A stretch of DNA of 64,000 nucleotides from Escherichia coli (GCF_030013595.1 NZ_CP122768.1), one strand, 5' to 3'. Numbered from the stretch's first letter, positions 1,009 to 41,095 are shown. The notes: a model not told the origin generated them from the sequence alone. Program-made: numbers and translations.

Positions 1009-1446
1009 TTACTTAATAACAGTAACCACAGCCACAAGCACGGCCATCGCAGACAGGACAATACCTGTGAGTAACCAAGTCTGATTTGCAAATGATTTCT
1101 GAAGTTCAGTACGATGCTCAGCCATCTCAACTTTCAGAGACTGGCGTAAATCAGCCATCTCAGACTTCAGGGATTGGCGCGATTCTGCCATCTCAAGCCT
1201 CAACCCTTCGCGAATCTCCAGTACATCAGATTTGGTAGCAAAGGATTCGCTTCTTGTGGTGAGAGTAATCAGGTTGTTTTTGATTTCAGTCACATCACTT
1301 TCCAGGCAACTGACCCGCCGTTCAAGGTCGTCATTCATGCCATCACCTCCATCATTACCACTTCCTGTTACTTGGTTGTTGGATACATTATAGGCATTCT
1401 CTTTCTTTTTTCTGAACCGCGAAATATGTGCAACATTCTCTGCCAT
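1009..1446 (-). CDS. Hypothetical coiled-coil protein with C-terminal transmembrane anchor (cargo)
   Basis: ORF with repeated heptad-like segments (LRLEMAESRQSLKSEMADLRQSLKVEMAEHRTEL) and a hydrophobic C-terminus; start overlaps the stop of the upstream ORF (TGATG). Confidence 0.5.
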   Translation of the reverse strand: MAENVAHISRFRKKKENAYNVSNNQVTGSGNDGGDGMNDDLERRVSCLESDVTEIKNNLITLTTRSESFATKSDVLEIREGLRLEMAESRQSLKSEMADLRQSLKVEMAEHRTELQKSFANQTWLLTGIVLSAMAVLVAVVTVIK

Positions 1447-1808
1447 CACTTCTCATCACCCTGCTTGCCTACCCAGTTCATAAAGGCCCGGGCCGAGTAA
1501 CGATGAACAAACCCACATCTGTTACAGGTAAGTCGGAATTCATAGTTATGGATATTTTCCCGATCATGTCCCTCATATCCCGGATACCCAGTAAATGGAC
1601 CGATGTAATCAAGCATAACAAAAGTGCCTAAATCACACTCCTCAGCAGTTTTCGGCTCAGGCCCCACCTCAACAATATTCGTCAAATACATGTACATATC
1701 CGTATCGCCACACGACAAACATTTTTCATTCGTAGACGACTCATTGAGAAAACGCGCAAAATTATCGAGCGTTGCCATTCTTTTAAGTTCATCTAAATGA
1801 AACTTCAC
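1446..1808 (-). CDS. Hypothetical protein with two CxxC pairs (possible zinc ribbon), cargo
   Basis: GTG start preceded by AGGAGG located inside the last int codons; CLSCG and CNRCG motifs. Confidence 0.5.
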   Translation of the reverse strand: MKFHLDELKRMATLDNFARFLNESSTNEKCLSCGDTDMYMYLTNIVEVGPEPKTAEECDLGTFVMLDYIGPFTGYPGYEGHDRENIHNYEFRLTCNRCGFVHRYSARAFMNWVGKQGDEK

Positions 1809-1810
1809 TC

Positions 1811-2788
1811 TTAAGCACCTCCTAGTGGATTAAACCTCACCGCATCCTGCAGGTAATCCGGCGCAAGATGGGCATAAATCATCGTTGTCTGAATCTTTGC
1901 GTGCCCCAGAATTTTCTGGAGCGTCAGAATATTGCCGCCGTTCATCATGAAATGACTGGCGAAGGTATGGCGCAGCGCATGAACAGCCTGGCCGTCAGGA
2001 ACATCAGGTGCGACCGTTTTGATGACATCGCGAACCAATGGATAATCCAGCGTCGGAAACACCAGTTTCCCGCCCCGTATTTTGATCTTTTCAAACAGGC
2101 TTTCAGAAATAGGAACGGTACGGTTTTTGCTGTTCTTCGTTTTTGAAAAAGTGATTCGACAATGAAGAACACGGCGCTGCTCTAGTGCCGCTACCTCGCC
2201 CCATCGCGCCCCGGTCGACAGAAGGATTTCGACAGCCAGCCGTTCATCGGGATTTTCAGCCAGTGCATCCAGCAACTGAACACATTCAGACTTACTCAGA
2301 TATCCCATTTCGCGCTCGTTAACCTTCATTCCTTTAAGGCCTTGAACGGGGTTATCGTTAAGAAAATGGCCGGATGAGATGAGTGCGGTAAACATCGCGC
2401 TTAACGCCCCAATCTCTCGATTTATGGTGCTGGGCTGTATCCCCTGCTCTATCCTGGACACACGTAGCTCGGTGAGCATCGTTGTATTAAGTTTATGCAC
2501 GCACGGGTCATCCATTGCCTCACTCAAGCGCAGCAATTTAAGGCGCGTGTTATGCCCTGACTTCATTAGCTGGCCGTGGTATTTCCACCACAAGTCAATA
2601 AGCACTGACAGCGGGCGGCGATCAATGGAGTTTCCTTTCCACTCATTGTTATGCTGTTGCGCCAGCACCCACCGCTCATATAAAACTGCATCCGATTTCG
2701 TTTTAAATTTTTTGCGAATGCGTTTGCCTTTACGCCCCTCAGGACGCATGTCAAGAAGATACCCTCCCGGAATTGATTTTATGCTCAT
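1811..2788 (-). CDS. int: Tyrosine integrase (P2 Int-like)
   Basis: C-terminal HxLRHT...Y catalytic region (AVHALRHTFASH...MIYAHL); adjacent to C repressor as in P2. Start chosen at MSIKS (ORF is open up to 2938). Confidence 0.85.
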   Translation of the reverse strand: MSIKSIPGGYLLDMRPEGRKGKRIRKKFKTKSDAVLYERWVLAQQHNNEWKGNSIDRRPLSVLIDLWWKYHGQLMKSGHNTRLKLLRLSEAMDDPCVHKLNTTMLTELRVSRIEQGIQPSTINREIGALSAMFTALISSGHFLNDNPVQGLKGMKVNEREMGYLSKSECVQLLDALAENPDERLAVEILLSTGARWGEVAALEQRRVLHCRITFSKTKNSKNRTVPISESLFEKIKIRGGKLVFPTLDYPLVRDVIKTVAPDVPDGQAVHALRHTFASHFMMNGGNILTLQKILGHAKIQTTMIYAHLAPDYLQDAVRFNPLGGA

Positions 2789-2837
2789 TCGTGAAGCCCC
2801 AGCGTTACAAGACCACCATGCCCCCAGCGTTCCATGA

Positions 2838-3149
2838 TTAGCCGGGCTGTGTGCCAGTCTTGCGGGATTTTTGAGAAGACGATGTGTTTTCTGGCCCATC
2901 AGGGGAGAGAGAAGGACTGATCTGCCCAGCAGCCTCATTTGTTTCGTTACTCATCAACCACGTAGTGTATTTTTTAAATTCCGGGTGCATTGTGATTTTC
3001 AGTAAAACCTCCGTTCCCACACCTCGAATACCAGTCTCGTATTGCTTAACCGTACCAACCGCAATACCTATTGAATCCGCGAACTTTGCCTGACTAAGCC
3101 CCTCAGATTCTCGAATTGCTTTTAGCTTCTTTGATATCTCTATTGACAT
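2838..3149 (-). CDS. C: Immunity repressor (P2 C-like, HTH)
   Basis: About 103 aa from MSIEISKKLKAIRESEGLSQAKFADSIGIAVGTVKQYETG; helix-turn-helix; divergent from the early operon. Confidence 0.75.
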   Translation of the reverse strand: MSIEISKKLKAIRESEGLSQAKFADSIGIAVGTVKQYETGIRGVGTEVLLKITMHPEFKKYTTWLMSNETNEAAGQISPSLSPDGPENTSSSQKSRKTGTQPG

Positions 3150-3244
3150 GGTGTGCACCTGAATACTATATTGGTTATCAGTTGAGTACCACTTGACACT
3201 ACAAAGAGCCACAAATAGCACCAGATTGAATAGGTTATCACACC

Positions 3245-3523
3245 ATGGCAAAAGTCCTTAACACATACGAACAAGCGGATTTTGAGCGTTTGGCGGCGTT
3301 CTACCCATACCGTAATGAACATGGGCTACCGGTACTTGAAGAAAGCCTGGAGGATTATGCGAAACGCACAAATCAAAGCATTCTCGCTGTAAGAAGGCAG
3401 GCTGATAGATCGGTAATTCCCGTTACTCAAGAAGGAAGAAACACAAAACGCAAAGTAAATCTCTTCGCAATTTTCCTGAAAACCATCAGAAACGCAGAGA
3501 AATACGTGCAAATGACAAAATAA
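3245..3523 (+). CDS. First early-operon gene, putative Cox/Apl-like regulator
   Basis: 92-aa ORF divergent from the repressor, positionally equivalent to P2 cox; no clear sequence match recalled. Confidence 0.45.
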   Translation: MAKVLNTYEQADFERLAAFYPYRNEHGLPVLEESLEDYAKRTNQSILAVRRQADRSVIPVTQEGRNTKRKVNLFAIFLKTIRNAEKYVQMTK

Positions 3524-3537
3524 CGAGGTGTCATTTT

Positions 3538-3876
3538 ATGCTGAAGCAACGCCGTAATTTTTGTACCGGAACAGAACGCCACGCTAACCGTTTCACTACC
3601 AGTGCATCACGCAGCAACATCCGCTACAGCCTGAGTGATACACACGCAACGCCGGATGGCTACCCAGTAAAACAAATCGGCGAGCACGCCTGGCTGATTG
3701 AGAAAGCTGGAATCGTGATCCACAAATGCCCACGCAATCCGTTTACCGGAAACCGCATTTTTGCACTGAGCTGTGGCGACAATCAGTTCGGGCAGGATTT
3801 CACATTATACGAAGCACTTCGCACGGTTGATCGTCTGCTTCGCGGGCAAAGTTTTATTAAACAGGCTGATTTATAA
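3538..3876 (+). CDS. Hypothetical early protein
   Basis: ORF with GAGGTG ribosome-binding site. Confidence 0.5.
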   Translation: MLKQRRNFCTGTERHANRFTTSASRSNIRYSLSDTHATPDGYPVKQIGEHAWLIEKAGIVIHKCPRNPFTGNRIFALSCGDNQFGQDFTLYEALRTVDRLLRGQSFIKQADL

Positions 3877-3886
3877 CAGGTGCTTT

Positions 3887-4174
3887 ATGACCAAAGACCA
3901 TGCACAAGGTGTATTTATTCGTTTTATTGATTTTCGCGGTGAACTGTTATTACGTGCATCCGCTATTGACGGAGTGACTCCGGCGGGTAAAAACGGAGCC
4001 GACGAAGCCACTTACGTTTATCTGAACGGCACGCGACTGCTTGTGGAACTTCCGTACCAGACCGTACGAGAAATCATCAGCGAAGCTGAAAAGGCACGCC
4101 AGGTTAATGGCGATGAACCCTATATCGAAATTATTTGTATGGATTCAGAAGCTGAAATACAGAAAGCAGATTAA
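3887..4174 (+). CDS. Hypothetical early protein
   Basis: ORF from internal ATG directly after the previous stop. Confidence 0.5.
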   Translation: MTKDHAQGVFIRFIDFRGELLLRASAIDGVTPAGKNGADEATYVYLNGTRLLVELPYQTVREIISEAEKARQVNGDEPYIEIICMDSEAEIQKAD

Positions 4175-16690: not shown

Positions 16691-16783
16691 CGACTGACCC
16701 CGTCAGCGGGCGGCGTGCGCGGTGTTCCGGTTTGACTCCGTGACCGTTTACACCGCGCACCCACCGCCCGATTTTTTTCAGGA

Positions 16784-17287
16784 GTGAACCCCATGAGTAT
16801 GGTTGCCAGAACTGAACCCAGACCCGCAGAGGACGACATCACCGATACCGATGATGGCGATACCCGCATTTCAGCGGGTGCATTCTGGCCGGATATTGTG
16901 CTGCGCGAGCTGCGTCTGGCGGTACGACTGCCGGGCCGCGTGACCACCTCCCGCCTGCTACATACTGCCACCGGGGCTGTGGCACACGTTACCCGCGAGC
17001 TGGAAGCATGGCAGCAGGAACAGCAGGCAGCTGGCCATCAGACGCTGGCCGATGTTCCGGCACCCGTAATTAACGGAGAAAGCGTCAATCTCTGGCACTG
17101 GCGCAATGCTGTTTATACCGCCACGCGCGCCCTGATTCTGGAGCGTTACCGCGATGCGGACACAACGGATAAGGGCGACCGCCGGGCGGACGCACTGGAT
17201 ATACAGACATCGGATTTGTGGCGCGATGTGAGCTGGGCCATCTCTGACATTCTGCGCCGCCCGCGAATTTTTGCGGAGCTGTGCTGA
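16784..17287 (+). CDS. L: Capsid completion protein (P2 gpL)
   Basis: C-terminal LWRDVSWA...RRPRI matches P2 L. Confidence 0.85.
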   Translation: MNPMSMVARTEPRPAEDDITDTDDGDTRISAGAFWPDIVLRELRLAVRLPGRVTTSRLLHTATGAVAHVTRELEAWQQEQQAAGHQTLADVPAPVINGESVNLWHWRNAVYTATRALILERYRDADTTDKGDRRADALDIQTSDLWRDVSWAISDILRRPRIFAELC

Positions 17288-17487
17288 TGAAAGTGAAGGC
17301 ACTGGAAGGCGACACCGTGGATTCGCTCTGTTTCCGGTACTACGGCACGACGCAGGGCGTCACCGAAAAGGTGCTGGATGCCAACCCCGGACTCTGTCAG
17401 CAGGTATTTCTGGACGCCGGGCAGGACGTGGAGATGCCGGAGCCGGAGAAGAAGAAACGAGAAATGATTCAGTTGTGGGGGGAGTAG
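17287..17487 (+). CDS. X: Tail protein X (P2 gpX)
   Basis: MKVKALEGDTVDSLCFRYYGTTQGV...ANPGL parallels P2 X. Confidence 0.85.
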   Translation: MKVKALEGDTVDSLCFRYYGTTQGVTEKVLDANPGLCQQVFLDAGQDVEMPEPEKKKREMIQLWGE

Positions 17488-17489
17488 CA

Positions 17490-17813
17490 GTGAGCACCAT
17501 TCAAACAGGGATCACAGAGCAGGTTATTGCGTGGCTCTTTGACCACCTGCCAACGGTGTATGCAGTAGGCGCGGCGGTCAGCATTTCCGCGCTGATGAGT
17601 CTTTATGACGGACGAACACTGGTTCAGACCGTAACGGGATCGCTGGCGTGCGGCGTTCTTGCCATGGCCGTGGCCGGGTCGTTGCGCTTCTTCGGGTTTC
17701 CTGAAGATGCCGTGACGTTTATCGGCGCATCAATCGGTTTTATGGGCGCAGAGAAAGCACGCGACAAGGTTATTGCGGCCTTTAATCGCAGGGTGAAGGG
17801 GAAGGACGAATGA
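17490..17813 (+). CDS. Y: Holin (gpY position)
   Basis: GTG start with GGGGGAG ribosome-binding site; small protein with hydrophobic helices directly before the endolysin. Confidence 0.65.
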   Translation: MSTIQTGITEQVIAWLFDHLPTVYAVGAAVSISALMSLYDGRTLVQTVTGSLACGVLAMAVAGSLRFFGFPEDAVTFIGASIGFMGAEKARDKVIAAFNRRVKGKDE

Positions 17814-18202
17814 GCAACACATTTAAATTCAGCAGTCGGAGCGAAAAGAATTTGCAGGGCGTAAATCCTGATCTGGTGAAAGTGACCCGACGGGCACTGG
17901 AAATTTCGGAAGTGGATTTTGGTATCACCGAAGGGTTGCGCAGCCGTTACCGCCAGAAGCAACTTGTGGCCACAGGTAAGAGCCAGACCATGAACAGCCG
18001 CCACCTTACGGGACATGCCGTGGATGTTGTGGCTTATATCGGCAGCCAGGTGTCATGGGAATGGCCGCTGTACGAAAAAATCGCAGCAGCATTCAGACAG
18101 GCCAGCCGGGAGCTGAATATTCCGGTGGAATGGGGCGGCGACTGGAAGACCCTGAAAGACGGACCGCATTTTCAGTTACCACACGGAGCCTATCCGGCAT
18201 GA
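17810..18202 (+). CDS. Endolysin, peptidase M15 family (L-alanyl-D-glutamate peptidase-like)
   Basis: SRHLTGHAVDV...VEWGGDW motif arrangement typical of zinc D-Ala-D-Ala carboxypeptidase-like phage lysins; occupies the P2 K position. Confidence 0.7.
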   Translation: MSNTFKFSSRSEKNLQGVNPDLVKVTRRALEISEVDFGITEGLRSRYRQKQLVATGKSQTMNSRHLTGHAVDVVAYIGSQVSWEWPLYEKIAAAFRQASRELNIPVEWGGDWKTLKDGPHFQLPHGAYPA

Positions 18203-18606
18203 AGCTCTGGCCCACGCTGGGTGTCGCTTTCCTTCTGATTGCCGCATGGGGAACATCCATGCGTCTGTCATGGTCGCTGGGCCGGGAGAACGCCAGAAAC
18301 GAAGCGCAGGCCAGCACCCTGAAACGTACCGCCGACACCCTGAATATCATCAGCGCCGGGGTACAGGATATGCAGCAGGTGCTGGCGCAACTCCGCGTGG
18401 AAAATCAGCAACGCAATCAGGACGGAGAGGTAAGACGTGAACAGCTACGCAACGATATTGCAAAAGATGAATGCGCCCACGCTTTGCCTGACGCTCGTTT
18501 TACTGACAGGCTGCGCAGGCACGCAGAACGCGCCACTGCCAGCGCCGTCAGTCCGGCTTATACCGCAGACGCTGACCATACCGGTAACGCCGCCCCCCTT
18601 CCCTGA
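18199..18606 (+). CDS. i-spanin (LysB/Rz-like)
   Basis: N-terminal transmembrane segment followed by coiled-coil; overlaps the embedded lipoprotein gene. Confidence 0.6.
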   Translation: MKLWPTLGVAFLLIAAWGTSMRLSWSLGRENARNEAQASTLKRTADTLNIISAGVQDMQQVLAQLRVENQQRNQDGEVRREQLRNDIAKDECAHALPDARFTDRLRRHAERATASAVSPAYTADADHTGNAAPLP

Positions 18607-18757
18607 TACTCCCACATGGGGAAATCTCGGTATATGGGGCGACCGCCTTCTGGATGCACTGGAAACCTGTAACGCGGATAAACGGGCCATTGAATTACTG
18701 GAACAGCGCAGGCTGCAACGACTGAACAACGAGGACAACAACCATGCTGAAAACTGA
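18437..18757 (+). CDS. o-spanin lipoprotein (LysC/Rz1-like), embedded and overlapping
   Basis: Signal peptide with lipobox LLTGC; proline-rich mature part; starts inside the i-spanin gene in another frame. Confidence 0.6.
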   Translation: MNSYATILQKMNAPTLCLTLVLLTGCAGTQNAPLPAPSVRLIPQTLTIPVTPPPFPDTPTWGNLGIWGDRLLDALETCNADKRAIELLEQRRLQRLNNEDNNHAEN

Positions 18758-19211
18758 TTCCCTGCGTGAAGCCATGACCCGTTCATGCCGATGGTGTCAG
18801 GCCAACCCGGAAAAATTCACCATTTTCGTGGAGAGCGGCAACATTGAAACGACCGGAGAAACGCCCTCGTTTGTTTACCGCTATCAGATGGTGATGTTTG
18901 TCATGGATTACGCCGGGGAGCTGGACGACCTCACGCTGCCGCTGCTGGCGTGGTTATCCGAAAATCAGCCACAGTTGTTGCTCAACCCTGAGCGTAATCA
19001 GGACATCAAATTCTCCGCCGTTATCAATGACGATGACAGCGCCGATCTCCTGTTTACGCTCCCCCTGCGGGAACGCGTTCGCATCACGCGCAGCAGTCAG
19101 GGGACACCGCAGGCAGAACACCTGCCGGAGCCAAAACCCCGCCTGCCATCACCCGAAGGCGACTGGTCGCATGTATTCCAGGATGTGACGTGGGGTGAAA
19201 GCGATGGATAA
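18744..19211 (+). CDS. R: Tail completion protein (P2 gpR)
   Basis: 155 aa, same length and position as P2 R. Confidence 0.8.
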   Translation: MLKTDSLREAMTRSCRWCQANPEKFTIFVESGNIETTGETPSFVYRYQMVMFVMDYAGELDDLTLPLLAWLSENQPQLLLNPERNQDIKFSAVINDDDSADLLFTLPLRERVRITRSSQGTPQAEHLPEPKPRLPSPEGDWSHVFQDVTWGESDG

Positions 19212-19839
19212 GGCATTCACCCGCGTGGATGAAACCTTTGAGGCCATCCGCGACAGCCTGAATCAGCAGGCCATCAATAACATCGCCAGAAAGCTGGCAC
19301 AGGATTTACGCCGCGCCCAGCAGGCGCGTATCCGGTCACAGAAAGCGCCGGACGGGACCGCGTGGACACCACGCAGACGCCGCGTAACCCGGATACAGGA
19401 GCGCATTCGCTTTATCTGGAATAACGAAGCACGCACGCTGAAAAACTGGCATCACGACACGGGGAAATACGGGCGAACCATTACCGGGTGGGATGAGGAT
19501 AAAAACAATATCCGCACGTTTTACCGGGATGACATCGACCGTTTTCTGGAAATACGCACCCGGCGCATCAACCAGGACAGCACAAAGCGCGTCCCCATGT
19601 TCGTAAAACTGCGCACCGCCCGCTACCTGAAAGCCCGTGCAGATGCTTCCGGTGTGACGGTGGGTTACAGCGGCGTGGCCGCACGTATTGCCCGCGTTCA
19701 TCAGTTCGGTGAGCGCGATCAGGTTGCGCCGGGCATTTTCACCGATTACCCGGTACGTGAGCTGCTGGGTATCAGCCAGGCAGATGAGCGCCTGATTTAT
19801 AACACGGTGCTGGGCCGGATTGCGGAGGCTGTACGGTGA
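19195..19839 (+). CDS. S: Tail completion/virion morphogenesis protein (P2 gpS-like)
   Basis: Position between R and V; longer than P2 S. Confidence 0.7.
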   Translation: MKAMDKAFTRVDETFEAIRDSLNQQAINNIARKLAQDLRRAQQARIRSQKAPDGTAWTPRRRRVTRIQERIRFIWNNEARTLKNWHHDTGKYGRTITGWDEDKNNIRTFYRDDIDRFLEIRTRRINQDSTKRVPMFVKLRTARYLKARADASGVTVGYSGVAARIARVHQFGERDQVAPGIFTDYPVRELLGISQADERLIYNTVLGRIAEAVR

Positions 19840-20417
19840 GCGCAGAACTCATGCGACTGCTGAGCAATATCATCCGCACCGGGATCATCTCTGAAGTTGA
19901 TGAGAAGTCCTGGCGCGTGCGCGTTCGCAGCGGCGAACTGGAAACAGGCTGGTTGCGCTGGAACACCACGCGCGCGGGAGCCTTCAATGTATGGCTGCCG
20001 CCATCACCAGGCGAACAGGTGGTAATTGCCTGCATTGGCGGCAACCCGGAAACCGCCATGATAATTGGCAGCCTGTGGAGTGATGCCAGTCCGGCCCCCG
20101 GCAAAAGCCTGAAAGAAATCGTGGTCAGCGCGCCGGATGGCGCGGCGTTCCGCTACGACGCAGACGCTGGCGCACTGAGCGCCAGCGGCATGAAAACAGC
20201 CACCCTGCAGGCATCCGTCAGCGTGACACTGGATACGCCCGTCGTGGAATGCACAAACCTTCTGAGAACAGCGACGCTTGACGTCACAAAAGGGGGAAAG
20301 ATGAGCGGCAATATCACGCACAGCGGCGGCGATTTCACCTCAAACGGCATCACAGTGCATACGCATAAGCACGGTGGCGTTAAAGGTGGCAGCGATTCGA
20401 CAGGAGGCCCGCAGTGA
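19836..20417 (+). CDS. V: Baseplate spike/assembly protein (P2 gpV)
   Basis: 193 aa with the conserved GG/HTH..HGG C-terminus of gpV-type spikes. Confidence 0.85.
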   Translation: MSAELMRLLSNIIRTGIISEVDEKSWRVRVRSGELETGWLRWNTTRAGAFNVWLPPSPGEQVVIACIGGNPETAMIIGSLWSDASPAPGKSLKEIVVSAPDGAAFRYDADAGALSASGMKTATLQASVSVTLDTPVVECTNLLRTATLDVTKGGKMSGNITHSGGDFTSNGITVHTHKHGGVKGGSDSTGGPQ

Positions 20418-32396: not shown

Positions 32397-33032
32397 TTAG
32401 CGAGCTAATATATTCAAAGAATTTAACAATTGAGTGTCGAGTGTTTCAGTTGCAGGAATCGGTAATCCATTCGCAATGCGGTAATTTTTCACAGACAGCC
32501 TTGTGGATGGCCCCATTATGCCGTCAATATTTCCGTTATAAAATCCCCTGTCCAGCAATGCGAACTGAACTCGCATAATCAATCGCTTACGTTTCTCTGC
32601 ATCAGAAGCAAGCCCATTACTCGTACGGTTAACCTCTGAAGTTCCAACAGAACTCGTGTTAGTGGTTCTATTATTATCGTTAGAACGAAGTGCACGCACC
32701 GAGGAAGAGGACGATGAGGAACTTGCACCTGAACTTGAAGAACCAGATGAACTTGGTGAGCTGTATGTTTTTGGATAATAGGGGGTACTTCCACCATAGT
32801 ATCCACCACCTGATGAGGATCTATGAGAGCTATGGCTCCTATGAGAACTATGGCTTCGATGCCCTGCGATATAAAATGGGACTTCCGTGTTAAGTGGAGC
32901 TATCACTAAATCATGCTCATTAAGAGTCATACCAGGTAAATCACTCGCTCCTGTAGATGAATCGCTTGCCCATACAGAATTGTTGAGAGCCAAAAATCCC
33001 GGAAGTAGAGCAGCAAAATTAAACTTTTTCAT
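32397..33032 (-). CDS. hxsA: His-Xaa-Ser repeat protein HxsA: secreted precursor with Gly/Ser/Tyr-rich linker and C-terminal peptidoglycan-binding domain
   Basis: Signal peptide MKKFNFAALLPGFLALNNSVWA; HRSHSSHRSHSSHRS repeats; C-terminus LLDRGFYNGNIDGIMGPSTRLSVKNYRIANGLP resembles PG_binding_1; ATGA overlap with hxsC. Confidence 0.8.
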   Translation of the reverse strand: MKKFNFAALLPGFLALNNSVWASDSSTGASDLPGMTLNEHDLVIAPLNTEVPFYIAGHRSHSSHRSHSSHRSSSGGGYYGGSTPYYPKTYSSPSSSGSSSSGASSSSSSSSVRALRSNDNNRTTNTSSVGTSEVNRTSNGLASDAEKRKRLIMRVQFALLDRGFYNGNIDGIMGPSTRLSVKNYRIANGLPIPATETLDTQLLNSLNILAR

Positions 33033-34141
33033 AAAATTGGTCTCGGTGATTGATGAAAACGGCCTTTTGAGGAACTGAAATAGCCAGCACAGGAAGGCTT
33101 CTGAGTACATTCATCACATTCTTTTGGATAGTAATTTTTCCAATCAGAGATCGACTGAACAGCAAGCTCCCTAGCCCTTTCAGGAAGATAACACAAAGGA
33201 TAATTAAAAATTGTCAGAGGTATGCCTGACCTGTATGCAGCGTCTATGGCAGAGATTATTTTCTCACTATAACTACTGTGATCAATGAAGATGGTGGACC
33301 AGTTTTTTCGTGCCCAACCGATAGGCTCCAACCCCATAAGGGAAATCTGATTGATGTTGGAGAACACACGGCCAGCGAATTCTACGATATCATCCAATTC
33401 GGTATAGTTAGCCAGTGTAGGAATAACTCTAAGTTCGATATTAATCCCCAAGTTTCCTGCATTGATTAACCCTTTAACCGTTTCATTAAATGCGCCATCA
33501 CTCCCTACCAGATGATCATGCACAAGTGGTCTTGATGAGTAGAGCGGGATACCAAAGGTGATTTTGATCTTTTTGCTTCGCTTTGCCATTTCCTGTGTAA
33601 AGTTGGTATCAGCAAATTTGCGTCCGTTTGTTAAAACATGTAAAGCAGTATCTGGTGAATTCTCGATGATAAAATCAATGAAGTGAAGGAAGTCATCCCC
33701 ATATAGCAAAGGTTCACCACCGCTGACCCCAACAACTCCGTTCAAGCCAAATGAAGCTATAGCAAGAGCTGATTGGGTAAGTAGCCAGTCATCATTTATT
33801 TTCTTTGGTGGCTGCGAACAAAACAGACACAAGTTATTGCAGCGTTCCGTAACTAAGACAGTATTATGATTGGCTTTGCGTGACAGAATAACGCGTATCA
33901 TATTGCCATTGTTGATTATCCCAATATCTCCATCTTCAATTGACTCAAATAATTCAGTGCTAATAACAGAGAAATCAAAGCATGGTGGAATGGCATCATT
34001 ATTGCCTTCAGCAACTACTAGCAAATTGGGCAAAAAGAATAAAGGGTTCACTGGTTTTTGTTTGCATAACCGATAGAACCCCGTGGGCACGTTCTCTGTA
34101 GAAGCAAAATGAAAGATATCGTTCCTGATAACCTCAGACAT
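33029..34141 (-). CDS. hxsC: Radical SAM maturase (HxsC-type assignment; B/C assignment tentative)
   Basis: CNNLCLFC (Cx3Cx2C) radical-SAM cluster motif; C-terminal CDEC...C cluster; overlaps both neighbours. Confidence 0.8.
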   Translation of the reverse strand: MSEVIRNDIFHFASTENVPTGFYRLCKQKPVNPLFFLPNLLVVAEGNNDAIPPCFDFSVISTELFESIEDGDIGIINNGNMIRVILSRKANHNTVLVTERCNNLCLFCSQPPKKINDDWLLTQSALAIASFGLNGVVGVSGGEPLLYGDDFLHFIDFIIENSPDTALHVLTNGRKFADTNFTQEMAKRSKKIKITFGIPLYSSRPLVHDHLVGSDGAFNETVKGLINAGNLGINIELRVIPTLANYTELDDIVEFAGRVFSNINQISLMGLEPIGWARKNWSTIFIDHSSYSEKIISAIDAAYRSGIPLTIFNYPLCYLPERARELAVQSISDWKNYYPKECDECTQKPSCAGYFSSSKGRFHQSPRPIL

Positions 34142-35522
34142 ATGCCCATCCTTTTAGCATCTCAGCCTTCGAACCACCCTCTGAGATGCAGTTCATCAGA
34201 TACCTGAACATCCCCTTGTGATATTGACAAAACGTTGAACGACTCCTATCACCGACAGGCTCACCCTGTACACTTATGTTCTGGCATGGATCTGAACCAC
34301 AAAATGGTTGATATGCACATGTATCACAACCTGGCAGAGCAAAATTGAACGATGAACTCAATACTGCGTTATAGTAAGGACTATCAGAAAATGATAGCGT
34401 CTTAACTTCACCCGCACTGAACTCCGTTTCAGGATTCACCTTCTGCAACATACGGCTCTCATCGCTACCATATACTCGACCGTCATAATTGAAAAGAATA
34501 CTGTTAAGCACGACTCCACTTGGAGACTTTAAATCCGCATAACCACTAAAACCGGGATTGAAGATCCTTTTCAGATGAATGGAGGCCGAATGTTCCACAA
34601 CCCTTATCCCTTCATTATTAATCTTAAGGATTTCATCTATCAACGAGGCATAGAAGCTGAAGTATTCGTCCATAGAAAAGGTGAAAGAAGCTTTTTGTGC
34701 AAACCCATAGGGACTAACAGGTCGGATAAACATGTCCTTGAGACCAAGAGACAAGTGAGCCTGAACAATCGATTCAGGACGTCTGATAAGCTCTTTAGTA
34801 ACTGTAGTAACCGTTGCAACGCGGCCAGCACCTAAAGAGTGTTTGATAGCCTCTACCCCTGACACTGTTCTACTGTACGCAAGCCCACGACCAAGAATTC
34901 GATTACTGTTGTGAACAACTTCCTCACCATCAAGCGACACAGAGAACGTTATGTTCCGGTCTCTCGACCATTCAATCATATCCTCATTCAAGACAGACAG
35001 ACTTGATGCCACCACCATCTCAAAATTGGTTCTTCCCAGCGTTTCAGCACATTGATCATAGATGCTCTGAATTAAATCAAACCGCAAGAGAGGCTCCCCA
35101 CCCTGTATCTCTATTTTGTAAGGTGGCGTTGATAGTTTTTTAATAGCCGAAATAATATCGGGGATGAGCTCAGGATTTAGGTCGTAACCTGAGGCATTAA
35201 CAGAAGCTCTACTAACCTGGCAATACTTGCATGTATGGTCACAACGTAATGTGGGTACAATCATGAAAATTGGCCTGACAGCCAGTTCATTCATCAATCG
35301 TTTTGCAAAAGCAGAACTTAAAGCATAGGGAGTTATAGCAGATGAGCTTTCACTGGTTATGAAAAGCTTACTTTCTAGCACGTTTGATTGCTCCGAACTA
35401 ATTCGCTCATCAGAAAGATCAATAAGGTCTTGCTCACCAATGAAATGATGAAAACCTGCAAGGTTGCTTATAAACACCTGTCCATTAGGCAATCTGTCAA
35501 AATTAAATGGCATCAATTCCAT
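34134..35522 (-). CDS. hxsB: Radical SAM/SPASM maturase (HxsB-type assignment; B/C assignment tentative)
   Basis: CDHTCKYC (Cx3Cx2C) motif plus C-terminal Cys-rich SPASM-like region (CDTCAYQPFCGSDPC...C). Confidence 0.8.
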   Translation of the reverse strand: MELMPFNFDRLPNGQVFISNLAGFHHFIGEQDLIDLSDERISSEQSNVLESKLFITSESSSAITPYALSSAFAKRLMNELAVRPIFMIVPTLRCDHTCKYCQVSRASVNASGYDLNPELIPDIISAIKKLSTPPYKIEIQGGEPLLRFDLIQSIYDQCAETLGRTNFEMVVASSLSVLNEDMIEWSRDRNITFSVSLDGEEVVHNSNRILGRGLAYSRTVSGVEAIKHSLGAGRVATVTTVTKELIRRPESIVQAHLSLGLKDMFIRPVSPYGFAQKASFTFSMDEYFSFYASLIDEILKINNEGIRVVEHSASIHLKRIFNPGFSGYADLKSPSGVVLNSILFNYDGRVYGSDESRMLQKVNPETEFSAGEVKTLSFSDSPYYNAVLSSSFNFALPGCDTCAYQPFCGSDPCQNISVQGEPVGDRSRSTFCQYHKGMFRYLMNCISEGGSKAEMLKGWAYV

Positions 35523-35836
35523 TATGAAAGCCTCTCATCAACACTGCGAAGCACTTTATGGACAATAGAGTCTCTCAACGCCCCTGTTTTATGCTGTAGC
35601 TTTTCTCGCAAAGAGTAATCATTAAGCAGCCTATCGAATTCATAAAGGAATTTGGGATTATCGTTTTCAAAAGAGATTATCCAGTGGGAAACGTCTTCAT
35701 GGAGTTTCCATCGAGTAAGCGGAGTCATCCAATATAGACTATTGCGTATAACCCATTCAGAATATAGTTCTTTCTCAAACACTCTTTCGCTCATTGCAAT
35801 TATCTTCCAATACAAATATTCATGATCAGCAACCAC
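35522..35836 (-). CDS. hxsD: HxsD, small LLNDYxLRE-motif protein of the His-Xaa-Ser system
   Basis: Contains FDRLLNDYSLREKL; GTG start at 35836 (alternative ATG at 35794); stop overlaps hxsB start by 1 nt. Confidence 0.7.
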   Translation of the reverse strand: MVADHEYLYWKIIAMSERVFEKELYSEWVIRNSLYWMTPLTRWKLHEDVSHWIISFENDNPKFLYEFDRLLNDYSLREKLQHKTGALRDSIVHKVLRSVDERLS

Positions 35837-36906: not shown

Positions 36907-36926
36907 AAAAAGGCCGCAGAGCGGCC
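36907..36926. repeat. attR core of the P2-like prophage (direct repeat copy 2); also the terminator hairpin of the downstream lambdoid gene
   Basis: Exact 20-bp match to 864-883; on the minus strand it forms hairpin plus T-run just after the stop of ORF 36949-37164. Confidence 0.6.
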
Positions 36927-38266: not shown

Positions 38267-38833
38267 TTAAACCACCACGCGCTCTTTCATCCAGCCATAG
38301 ACAAACGACTCATTGGCCTCGCGTTTCTCTGCCAGCTCCAGATAACGCTCGCCCTGCGTACAGTTCAGGGCTTTCACCAGTACCAGTTCACCATCCCTGC
38401 TGCGATTTTTCAGATATGCCCGTAATGCATTAAGAGTACGCGGCCCGATGCGTCCATCAGCATCCATATCCGGATAGAGTTTCCCGCGCAGGTTGAAAAC
38501 GTTCAGCCAGCGCTGAAGCATTCTGGACGCCACAGTTGGCCCCATGTTCACGCCCGTATCGCACAACTCTGCGGCAATATCCGGAGACAGGTCCTCAACC
38601 TGGTCGAATCGTGGTCCGTACCAGTAGTCCGCCTCGAGTATTTCCAGCGCCTGCCCACGCGTCAGGTCACGCATATCGCCCTGATAACCGTGTGCACGGG
38701 CAACTTTTTCAGTGATGCCCCATTTAGTCGGACCACCTTTATCATCCGGGTGATTGACGTAACCGCCCTCTTTTCCCAGAATTTCGTCAAAAATTTCATC
38801 TTTCGACTTCATATCAGCGCCTTCGTAATACAA
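38267..38833 (-). CDS. Endolysin, GH108-type lysozyme with peptidoglycan-binding domain
   Basis: N-terminal EGGYVNHPDDKGGPTKWGIT block typical of GH108 phage lysozymes; follows holin-like genes. Confidence 0.7.
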   Translation of the reverse strand: MYYEGADMKSKDEIFDEILGKEGGYVNHPDDKGGPTKWGITEKVARAHGYQGDMRDLTRGQALEILEADYWYGPRFDQVEDLSPDIAAELCDTGVNMGPTVASRMLQRWLNVFNLRGKLYPDMDADGRIGPRTLNALRAYLKNRSRDGELVLVKALNCTQGERYLELAEKREANESFVYGWMKERVVV

Positions 38834-39104
38834 GGATTTTTGATACGTTCCCGCGTGCTCGTATCACCAGCACGCAGAACACCAGGTTAATCAGGACGAC
38901 CAGCCAGTTACCGGGAGGAAAGCGACCACACAGATAACAAAGCGGCGCAAAGGCATAAAGCAGCATCAGCAGCCAGGCCAGCCACGACATCAGCGGTTTA
39001 TGTCTCGACTCACCACGACGATAAAAAAAGAGCGTCAGCACGATAACCGTGCTTAACACCACATTCAGTAATCCGGGAAGGTTACTTAACATTACCGCCT
39101 CCAC
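38814..39104 (-). CDS. Putative holin/antiholin-like membrane protein
   Basis: Three hydrophobic segments; between holin and lysozyme. Confidence 0.4.
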   Translation of the reverse strand: MEAVMLSNLPGLLNVVLSTVIVLTLFFYRRGESRHKPLMSWLAWLLMLLYAFAPLCYLCGRFPPGNWLVVLINLVFCVLVIRARGNVSKILVLRRR

Positions 39105-39471
39105 CCCGCAGACGGGAGAACAGCCCGGATACCAGCGATGCGATATCCTGCTGGTGGATGAATGAGAGAATCTTCACCGACACCACCGATACCAGTACCG
39201 CACAAAGCGCGTCGAGAGATGTGCTGTGGAGATTCAATTTTTCGACCAGCCAGGACGCAAGGACATCCGCCCCCAGCACGCCAACAATGAACGACACCAG
39301 AAAATGCGCCGCCACACGCCAGACAGAAATCACCTGTGGCATCGTGGCCACAAACAACGCCCCGGCAAACGCGCCAAACACAATCCCGAAATCCGTCCCG
39401 GTAAACAGCCCGAATACCGTCGCCCCGCCGAGCGCCACAGCAGTGCTGGAACCGGATAAGGGTTCAGACAT
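39082..39471 (-). CDS. Putative holin
   Basis: Gly/Ala-rich transmembrane helices; first gene of the lysis cassette. Confidence 0.5.
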   Translation of the reverse strand: MSEPLSGSSTAVALGGATVFGLFTGTDFGIVFGAFAGALFVATMPQVISVWRVAAHFLVSFIVGVLGADVLASWLVEKLNLHSTSLDALCAVLVSVVSVKILSFIHQQDIASLVSGLFSRLRGGGGNVK

Positions 39472-41095
39472 ATTTATTCTCCTGTAAATAAAAAGGACCA
39501 TCAGCGGCCCCGTAACTGACATTTTATTAACGTTTGAAGATATGGATATTTATCAGGGTTTACCGTTTTCTGAACCCTGGATATGTTAAGCATTCAGCCC
39601 GCCAGTGGTGGGACGCTGGCTCATCATAGAGAAAGAGGGATGGCTGATTACCTCTGATCAGGGAAATCACATGCAGTTTTTACATAAAAGAATGCATTTA
39701 AATGCAGGAGATACGGTAGTGGTTGACTGCTCTCATCAGTGCAATATTTTGCTGATGACAGATACAAACTTTAATAACTACCGCAACGCAAGAAGCTTTC
39801 ATCATCACGGTGGTGGCGGTTTTTTTCAGAGATTACCGGCCCACCTTCATGTACCGCATTCAGGTTACTGGAATATTACAATTGATTTAGGAGGCGGAAG
39901 TGCAGCTATTCGGCACTCCATTTCCGTCATCCCAGCATAGCAACTCGCCTTTAGCCTGAGTAAATGCGTCCTCAAGGACGGCAACGAGTCGCAGTTGCGT
40001 GCCGTCCTTTACACAGCGTGTGCAGGCAATACCTTCAGAACTTTCATTATGCCGAGCTCATACAATTTCACCATTTTGTTCAACTACAACGCTCATAATT
40101 TTCTTACACTTTTTTAATAAACCACACCAATAACAACCATCACCGATACCTTTTGTATGCTGTTATTTTGCATTACGGTGTAACGGCAAGAGCCCCCTCC
40201 CCGCCCTGAAAGGCTCTGTGTTTTTGATGTGCGCCTGATGTGGCTCAGATACAAAAAAGCTCGCAGTAGCGAGCTAACAGAAAATATGAAGCATGTTTTT
40301 ATCCACGAAGTATGACGTTGAATTCATCCATACCGACACGGCTGGCTATCTCGTTGTATTCCTCAACAAGAGCCAGCAATTCTGAATTAGCAGCCATGAA
40401 CTCTTCAAAAACCTTATGGATGGCATCACTGTTTAATAAAACAATGTTCTTTCCTGAAAGGCGATCAGGGGTAGAAAATATAACTGTCAAACGACTAAAG
40501 GCCCTGGCTCGTTCAGCATTAACATCCTCAATACGCTGCAACAAGCTGGAGCACCTGGAAATATCATCAATATTCACTCTACTCCTGCCATCTGGATGAT
40601 AATCATTTCACGGAGAGAAGCACTCAGAAGTACCACTGAAGTATAGCTGGTGACCAGCTACTTACACATCTATTGCCATCCTGCTGATGATAAGTCGACA
40701 TTAGCCCTTCTGTCTATAAACGAAACAAAGGATAAGTTCAGGTTTTAAACACACTGCCAGGATAAAGTATTGTATACAGTATAGAAGAGCGTTATTGAAT
40801 GACATAAAAAACCAGACCTAATCCCTTATCCGGAAGATATATCAAATAAACGGGGAAAATGTATTAAGATGGCGTTCCTATTCTCTCCATCCCTGATGTC
40901 CACGTAACTCGTTATAGAATCAGAACGCCATCTGAATACACACAAAAAAGCTGACTTCACACCCTCCAGATGTGTGAACGCAGTGCCCGACCACGTGCTT
41001 TCGCAACCAGCACAAATCATTTTAAAGCATCGAAAAACGATCAGAATATATCAGAACTTCCTAGCATCCTGCTTGGCTTAGATATTAATCGAGGA

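Follow-up and report, generated by a model that had tools for sequence, protein, structure and literature searches.

The four genes at positions 17490-18757 of the window, that is, the whole 64,000-nucleotide stretch of Escherichia coli DNA that was analyzed, very probably form the canonical holin, endolysin and two-component spanin set of a P88-like E. coli prophage (Xuanwuvirus, Peduoviridae), placed in a P2-type late operon and equipped with an endolysin of the M15, L-Ala-D-Glu type. They are tightly coupled and lie between the tail genes X and R of the P2-family late operon, within a P2-type prophage of 36 kb that appears to be intact. The genes and their conserved flanks are as follows.

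17281-17487, + strand: tail protein X (gpX), conserved left flank; 68 aa; PF05489 Phage_tail_X, 1.7e-20; 48% amino-acid identity to P2 X
17490-17813, + strand: holin of the lambda-S family; 107 aa; PF05106 Phage_holin_3_1, 1.1e-19
17810-18202, + strand: endolysin, single-domain M15/LAS zinc peptidase; 130 aa; PF13539 Peptidase_M15_4, 8.1e-12
18199-18606, + strand: i-spanin (Rz/LysB-like); 135 aa; phrog_214 'Rz-like spanin', 2.9e-40
18437 or 18467 to 18757, + strand: o-spanin (Rz1/LysC-like) lipoprotein; PF23793 LysC, 7.8e-13
18744-19211, + strand: tail completion protein R (gpR), conserved right flank; 155 aa; PF06891 P2_Phage_GpR, 4.6e-40; 40% identity to P2 R

Organization of the cassette

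The ORF listing and direct reading of the region 16800-19200 gave X to R as a run of + strand genes whose stop and start codons overlap or abut. At both the holin/endolysin and the endolysin/i-spanin junctions the stop and start codons overlap in an ATGA sequence, and this suggests translational coupling. In the region 16700-19900, no promoter-like site was found and the two terminator-like sites were at or below the expectation from shuffled sequence. Therefore, the cassette seems to be transcribed together with the other late-operon genes. A search for repeats in 17200-18900 gave nothing beyond short two-copy matches of the kind expected by chance.

The Pfam assignments of the holin, the endolysin, the o-spanin, X and R all exceed the curated cut-offs, and all four cassette genes matched PHROG lysis families. 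The E-values of these families are far beyond chance. The NCBIfam search of the cassette proteins returned no equivalog above its cut-off for any of them.

Relation to phage P88 and prevalence

In nucleotide sequence, the segment 17281-18760 (1,480 bp) shares 98.3% identity with phage P88; for phage 500465-2, of the genus Xuanwuvirus, the value is 99.5%. The identity to P88 extends colinearly over 6.5 kb, again at 98.3%, and this combination of identity and synteny assigns the prophage, as judged from sequence comparison, to the P88-like Xuanwuvirus. The P88 lysis genes gp30-gp32 agree with the cassette in gene order and products, with essentially no difference. P88 is inducible and lyses E. 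coli, and its authors described its lysin as phylogenetically distinct from the lysins of other P2-like phages (PMC5285337). A literature search for 'Xuanwuvirus' returned only passing mentions.

The cassette was found in 1,098-1,099 of 5,426 complete E. coli genomes, or about a fifth, including O104:H4 C227-11 and ST131 strains; in six complete genomes (cq9 and five others) the stretch is 100% identical. At this locus RefSeq lists a 'phage holin family protein', an 'M15 family metallopeptidase', a 'DUF2570 domain-containing protein' and an 'Rz1-like lysis system protein LysC', the proteins of strain cq9 being WP_001407218, WP_000072327, WP_000780552 and, for LysC, WP_418512423. The RefSeq record of P88 calls its enzyme 'endolysin; Peptidase M15'. 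The cassette is thus already known: it is standard, annotated in databases and the norm for a very common prophage lineage.

Holin

The holin gene starts with GTG at 17490, ends with TGA at 17813 and is preceded by a Shine-Dalgarno sequence, GGGGGAG, 5 nt upstream. The protein matched PF05106 with 71.1 bits (cut-off of 23.8) and phrog_126 (holin/anti-holin) with an E-value of 2.6e-35; the match to TIGR01594 holin_lambda of NCBIfam, 53.9 bits, was just under the cut-off of 55.05. The hydropathy scan gave two clear hydrophobic stretches, residues 20-39 and residues 44-70, together with a charged C-terminal tail. A candidate for the third of the three transmembrane domains of a class I holin, at about residues 74-87, is weaker; it lies under the hydropathy threshold and was recognized by eye in the sequence.

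The lambda-type dual-start (holin/antiholin) motif was not found in the holin sequence. The sole in-frame start upstream, GTG 17475, would add the residues MGGVA, which carry no positive charge. The ChiW holin of Serratia likewise has a single start codon, and both proteins belong to the holin-3 family.

Endolysin

The endolysin gene runs from ATG 17810, which overlaps the holin stop codon, to TGA 18202. The original prediction had placed a peptidase of the M15 type after the holin in place of an enzyme of the P2 K type, and a search for the Peptidase_M15 domain, suggested there as a check, bears this out: PF13539 (Peptidase_M15_4) was matched with 46.0 bits (cut-off of 25). In addition, the protein matched phrog_465 'endolysin' (5.1e-77) and solved structures in the PDB sequence search, namely ChiX (5opz, 2.5e-48), 23ri (2.1e-48), 8q2g (2.7e-46) and the T5 endolysin (2mxz, 8.8e-23); it has no similarity to P2 K. 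The identity is 78/126 (62%) to ChiX and 79/125 to 23ri. The 23ri and 8q2g chains are named Peptidase M15C domain protein and peptidoglycan L-alanyl-D-glutamate endopeptidase.

In ChiX, the zinc ion is bound by His68, Asp75 and His123; the enzyme has L-Ala-D-Glu endopeptidase activity in vitro, its D120A variant is inactive, and Arg47 is implicated (PMC5778951). In the alignment, His65, Asp72, His120, Asp117 and Arg44 of the cassette endolysin correspond to His68, Asp75, His123, Asp120 and Arg47 of ChiX, so that all five functional residues are kept. They fall mainly in two motifs.

17996-18028, + strand: SRHLTGHAVDV (residues 63-73), with the Zn ligands His65 and Asp72; the same block is present in ChiX (His68, Asp75)
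18158-18169, + strand: D117-G-P-H120, with the catalytic Asp and the third Zn ligand, His; aligns with ChiX Asp120 and His123

The metal-binding pattern is therefore H65-x6-D72 with a distal H120, and the catalytic Asp is located three residues ahead of H120. This modifies the earlier reading of SRHLTGHAVDV as the H..D...H zinc pattern. His65 and Asp72 are retained as Zn ligands; the second histidine of the motif, His69, gives way to Phe or Leu in two solved homologues. It is not a metal ligand, the third ligand being H120 outside the motif.

From its 62% identity to ChiX, the enzyme is predicted to be an L-alanyl-D-glutamate endopeptidase. The Pfam name of PF13539, 'D-alanyl-D-alanine carboxypeptidase', and a weak NCBIfam match to MepK (E-value of 0.016) would fit a different activity, in which a VanY/VanX/MepK-type enzyme, either D,D-carboxypeptidase or D,D-dipeptidase, trims the peptidoglycan and L-Ala-D-Glu cleavage is not involved. 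However, the MepK match, 15 bits, is far under the cut-off of 185, and the nearest solved relatives (62-63% identity, E-values of about 1e-48) either carry the name L-alanyl-D-glutamate endopeptidase or have been demonstrated to have this activity: ChiX and 8q2g, and also T5 2mxz. The position of the gene between the holin and the spanins and the phrog_465 'endolysin' assignment (5e-77) speak against D,D-activity as well, which we regard as highly improbable. The L-Ala-D-Glu specificity is the preferred assignment.

No hydrophobic stretch, signal sequence or SAR sequence was found in the endolysin, in which the maximum Kyte-Doolittle average over 15 residues is 0.74. The protein is thus considered to be soluble and holin-dependent, as is a canonical endolysin.

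Spanins

The ATG of the i-spanin at 18199 overlaps the endolysin stop codon. By hydropathy, the N-terminus is hydrophobic over about residues 1-23, in agreement with the transmembrane segment that had been noticed in this gene. In the AlphaFold model, predicted from the single sequence, a continuous helix spans residues 4-94 and a second one residues 99-116 (mean pLDDT of 82). The coiled coil ascribed to this protein is read from the long predicted helix; it might be formed there, and this would fit an Rz-like periplasmic domain. The protein also cross-matched phrog_89, the family of P2 LysB (2.7e-4). Its matches to DUF2570 (21.5 versus 26.6 bits) and to TIGR03495 LysB (14.7 versus 92.75) are below the cut-offs.

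The o-spanin gene lies in the +1 frame of the i-spanin gene. The two overlap by 170 nt, and the o-spanin gene continues for 151 nt past the i-spanin stop; its own stop overlaps the gpR gene. The lipobox LLTGC is at 18500-18514, without Asp at +2. The mature part, 81 aa, is rich in proline (10 Pro) and contains one Cys besides the lipidated Cys; one Cys is also present in the periplasmic domain of the i-spanin, so that disulfide bonds between the two proteins would be feasible. The score against PF23793 LysC was 48.6 bits (cut-off of 27), and PHROG matches were obtained to phrog_3001 (3e-25) and to phrog_456, the family of P2 LysC (2.6e-15).

These results agree with the overlapping spanin genes of the original prediction, as is apparent from the matches to PF23793, phrog_214 and phrog_3001. 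The out-of-frame lipoprotein gene with its LLTGC lipobox is indeed present; it is not contained in the i-spanin gene as had been stated, since it extends beyond the i-spanin stop. Two classes of spanin gene architecture have been described: 'overlapped', as in lysB/lysC of P2, and 'embedded', as in lambda (PMC6139136). The spanin genes of the cassette belong to the overlapped class like P2 lysB/lysC and are not embedded like those of lambda.

Three start codons come into consideration for the o-spanin: GTG 18437, ATG 18467 and CTG 18488, the last being the start given by RefSeq/PGAP. The sequence GGAGAGG is located 6 nt ahead of GTG 18437 and is kept in P88, cq9 and Shae_phiSM. Furthermore, a start at GTG 18437 yields a signal peptide with Lys in the N-region. 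GTG 18437 would thus be favored over ATG 18467. The CTG 18488 start leaves only eight residues before the lipidated Cys, an implausibly short signal peptide. It should be mentioned that the o-spanin is not annotated in the phage records.

Proposed lysis pathway

By analogy, the cassette would operate like the three-step lysis pathway of lambda and P2. The holin, as a member of the lambda-S family, would build up in the inner membrane and then trigger, forming large holes. Through these holes the signal-less zinc peptidase of 130 aa would leave the cytoplasm and cleave the stem peptide between L-Ala and D-Glu. As in its family, the Zn ion would be held by His65, Asp72 and His120, and Asp117 would serve as the general base. 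Finally, the i-spanin in the inner membrane and the lipoprotein o-spanin in the outer membrane, probably linked across the periplasm as expected for these families, would disrupt the outer membrane after removal of the wall.

The same four kinds of protein are encoded by chiWXYZ of Serratia marcescens, which serves chitinase secretion. The correspondence of families is complete: a single-start holin of the holin-3 family, an L-Ala-D-Glu endopeptidase (ChiX) and two spanin-like proteins. The cassette might accordingly be imagined as a domesticated holin/endopeptidase secretion device of the ChiWXYZ kind, working for the host and not as a phage lysis module. We consider this hardly credible. The chiWXYZ genes are chromosomal and explicitly not associated with a prophage, and their spanin-like genes are separate; in contrast, the cassette is located within a phage late operon, between X and R of the apparently intact 36-kb P2-type prophage, and its genes are 98% identical to those of the inducible, plaque-forming phage P88. 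A function in phage lysis is by far the better reading of the cassette.

Comparison with P2, lambda and other phages

The P2 cassette, Y-K-lysA-lysB-lysC, shares with the present one the X-to-R position in the late operon and the overlapped +1-frame spanins. The M, L, X, R, S and V proteins of P2 are 26-48% identical to their counterparts flanking the cassette. In contrast to these flanking proteins, P2 Y, K and lysA showed no BLASTP similarity to the cassette proteins. The two holins are from unrelated families, PF04550/phrog_175 for P2 Y and PF05106/phrog_126 for the cassette. P2 K was typed by PDB sequence search, because Pfam gave nothing for either P2 K or lysA; it is an endolysin of the lambda-R type (PDB 1am7, lambda lysozyme, 4.6e-44), whereas the cassette endolysin is an M15 peptidase.

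The spanins are closer. LysB and LysC of P2 belong to phrog_89 and phrog_456, families matched secondarily by the cassette spanins, and weak reciprocal PHROG cross-matches were seen for the LysB type. The o-spanin is in the Pfam LysC family of P2, with a weak BLASTP match to P2 LysC itself, and the i-spanin is a distant relative of LysB. A lysA-like gene in the cassette was rejected: there is no room for it between the endolysin stop at 18202 and the i-spanin start at 18199, and no similarity was found. Relative to P2, the cassette thus has a holin and an endolysin from unrelated families, no lysA, and spanins that are distantly related and laid out alike. The original prediction had not remarked that the holin, too, is of a non-P2 family (PF05106 versus PF04550), that lysA is absent, or that the arrangement is common and annotated.

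A recent import of the cassette from lambda was ruled out. Pairwise BLASTP with lambda S, R, Rz and Rz1 gave only weak similarity, between S and the holin (1.3e-4) and between Rz and the Rz-like protein (0.047).

The endolysin family is widespread. By tblastn it is present in 1,326 phage records, including T5-like, T4-like and P22-like phages, Nonanavirus and others. The T5 endolysin (PDB 2mxz/8p3a) is of the same single-domain M15 L-Ala-D-Glu peptidase family of about 130 aa. The endolysins of T4-like phages, such as phage kaaroe, are about 63% identical to the cassette endolysin, and that of Salmonella phage SP069 is 76% identical. Across the T5, T4-like and SP069 enzymes the identity is 38-76%, and the phage backgrounds as well as the partner holins and spanins differ from those of the cassette.

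A precedent for the pairing of lysB/lysC with an M15 enzyme is Burkholderia phage ST79, which we take to be a P2-like myovirus and which encodes a holin, a peptidase M15A endolysin, lysB and lysC. The ST79 endolysin is muralytic by zymogram; it belongs to another M15 subfamily (PF08291 Peptidase_M15_3) and is no close relative of the cassette enzyme.

Exchange of the endolysin gene

A member of the same genus, Citrobacter phage Shae_phiSM, matches the window with 96.6% identity up to 17790 and again from 18195. Between these breakpoints, the M15 gene is replaced by an endolysin gene of the GH108 + PG_binding_3 type (181 aa) and a 54-nt spacer. The exchanged segment is the following.

17791-18194, + strand: exchangeable segment, consisting of the last 7 holin codons and the whole endolysin gene; identity to Shae_phiSM stops at 17790 and resumes at 18195

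The GH108 version was found in the same context in 32 complete E. coli genomes (e.g. IHE3034), versus about 1,008 with M15. In Shae_phiSM and these 32 E. coli prophages, the holin, spanins and flanks are about 97% identical to the cassette, and the endolysin differs in being GH108. E. coli ETEC1730 has the same left breakpoint as Shae_phiSM (window 17790); it is a P88-like GH108 variant without any spanin genes, in view of which lysis may, in certain conditions, not require spanins.

Counterparts of both endolysins are present in lambdoid prophages, in one type of lambdoid lysis cassette. The window itself contains a lambdoid prophage whose endolysin gene (minus strand, 38267-38833) shares about 80% identity with that GH108 gene. 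The lambdoid cassette of E. coli ESC818 has holins 85% identical to the window segment 38832-39515, and its endolysin is an M15 protein that is 80% identical in protein sequence to the cassette endolysin. All four combinations of a P88-like or lambdoid backbone with an M15 or GH108 endolysin exist. Salmonella phage SEN4, from another Peduoviridae genus, has a 56%-identical holin of the same family paired with a GH24 lysozyme.

Because several close relatives, among them Shae_phiSM and E. coli prophages with GH108, differ only at this gene and reciprocal lambdoid arrangements exist, the endolysin gene is considered to be an independently exchanged module. Module swapping in the lysis cassette, as had been proposed, is thus seen at two levels: the P2 flanks are homologous with Y and K unmatched, and the M15 gene is substituted by GH108 in Shae_phiSM.

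M15 is the common resident endolysin state in the P88-like lineage. It was present in all 15 full-length phage matches and, among E. coli prophages with the holin/Rz context of the cassette, in about 97%; the GC content of the endolysin gene, 0.537, is near that of its neighbors, 0.56-0.60. These features would be expected if no recent swap had occurred, M15 being the ancestral endolysin of P88-like phages and an ancient divergence of whole cassettes accounting for the difference from P2. A resident M15 gene is compatible with the data, yet exchange at the endolysin slot is directly visible in the GH108 gene that lies between 96.6%-identical flanks. M15 also occurs in the lambdoid cassette of ESC818, the holins of which match the lambdoid prophage of the window, and P2 Y and K are from unrelated families despite the homologous flanking genes. 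The account without a recent swap therefore seems unlikely, and exchange of the endolysin gene as a separate module is the preferred interpretation.

Significance

Phage lysis cassettes are textbook mosaics, and the discovery value of the present one is little. A modest value lies in the very clean replacement of a single endolysin gene: the breakpoints fall at the borders of the gene, and reciprocal combinations occur in two phage backbones. In addition, overlapped o-spanin genes are still overlooked or given wrong starts by annotation pipelines.

In the window, the P88-like and lambdoid prophages are physically nested, and each has one of the two endolysin types. The left breakpoint at 17790 is common to two independent GH108 variants of P88-like phages. 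We tentatively suggest, as a possibility rather than the expected outcome, that the endolysin slot is a preferred recombination cassette shared by P2-like and lambdoid prophages of E. coli. If this is true, unrelated prophages residing in one host would frequently exchange the endolysin alone, in a site-directed manner, and the GH108 variant without spanins would be a hint that the two enzymes differ in function.

Borders and Nesting of the P88-like Prophage

A perfect 20-bp direct repeat, AAAAAGGCCGCAGAGCGGCC, is found at positions 864-883 and 36907-36926 of the window and bounds the P88-like prophage. The insertion site is inside a lambdoid prophage, which is itself located at yccA, and the insertion splits the DNA-packaging gene of the lambdoid phage from its lysis genes. 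Both flanks of the P88-like prophage are joined directly in E. coli HCP5S3_I2, where they have one copy of the 20-bp sequence in common. In the window, one prophage is nested inside the other. The features at the left border are as follows.

about 884-36906, P88-like prophage, between the copies of the 20-bp repeat
1009-1808, minus strand, ORFs of 145 and 119 aa, flanked by the left att repeat and the integrase
1811-2938, minus strand, integrase of the P88-like prophage

Searches of the two ORFs against Pfam and with PADLOC gave no match. In NCBIfam, the 145-aa ORF showed a weak match to SH3_and_anchor (9.4e-5, under the cut-off), and the 119-aa ORF showed none.

Lysis Genes of the Lambdoid Prophage and of Related Prophages

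The lambdoid prophage has its own lysis cassette, the second in the window, at 38267-39522 on the minus strand:

39082-39522, minus strand, Phage_holin_8 protein
38814-39104, minus strand, second small holin ORF
38267-38833, minus strand, endolysin with GH108 and PG_binding_3 domains

In the P88-like prophage variant of E. coli ETEC1730 (NZ_CP122832.1; locus L009, positions 2501-3932), the holin is accompanied by a GH108 endolysin, and the spanin genes are absent altogether. The identity between this variant and the window ends at 17790 and restarts at 18713, shortly ahead of gpR.

The lysis cassette of the prophage in E. coli cq9 is 100% identical to that of the window. Several late genes of the cq9 prophage (replication endonuclease, gpM, V, and W) are frameshifted in RefSeq, whereas the M, V, and W ORFs of the window are intact.

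Annotation of the o-Spanin Gene

It should be mentioned that the annotation of the o-spanin gene is problematic in the window (18437-18757), in the cq9 prophage (L003, 21208-21477), and in locus L002. The gene was left unannotated in the records of P88 and of Citrobacter phage Shae_phiSM, and the name LysC was not found among the features listed for the remaining phage matches. The lysC start assigned by RefSeq/PGAP is the CTG at 18488, which leads to a signal peptide of eight residues. The Shine-Dalgarno sequence GGAGAGG precedes the GTG at 18437, which looks like the true start.

Hxs Cargo Cassette

The P88-like prophage carries a further cassette:

32397-35836, minus strand, Hxs cargo cassette, between tail gene D and ogr

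It encodes HxsD, the radical SAM proteins HxsB and HxsC, and the His-Xaa-Ser repeat protein HxsA, all of which exceed the NCBIfam equivalog cut-offs. The viperin matches obtained with PADLOC were all weak. The cq9 prophage lacks this cassette, although it is elsewhere 97% identical to the prophage in the window. The Hxs cassette may be a moron or defence cargo.
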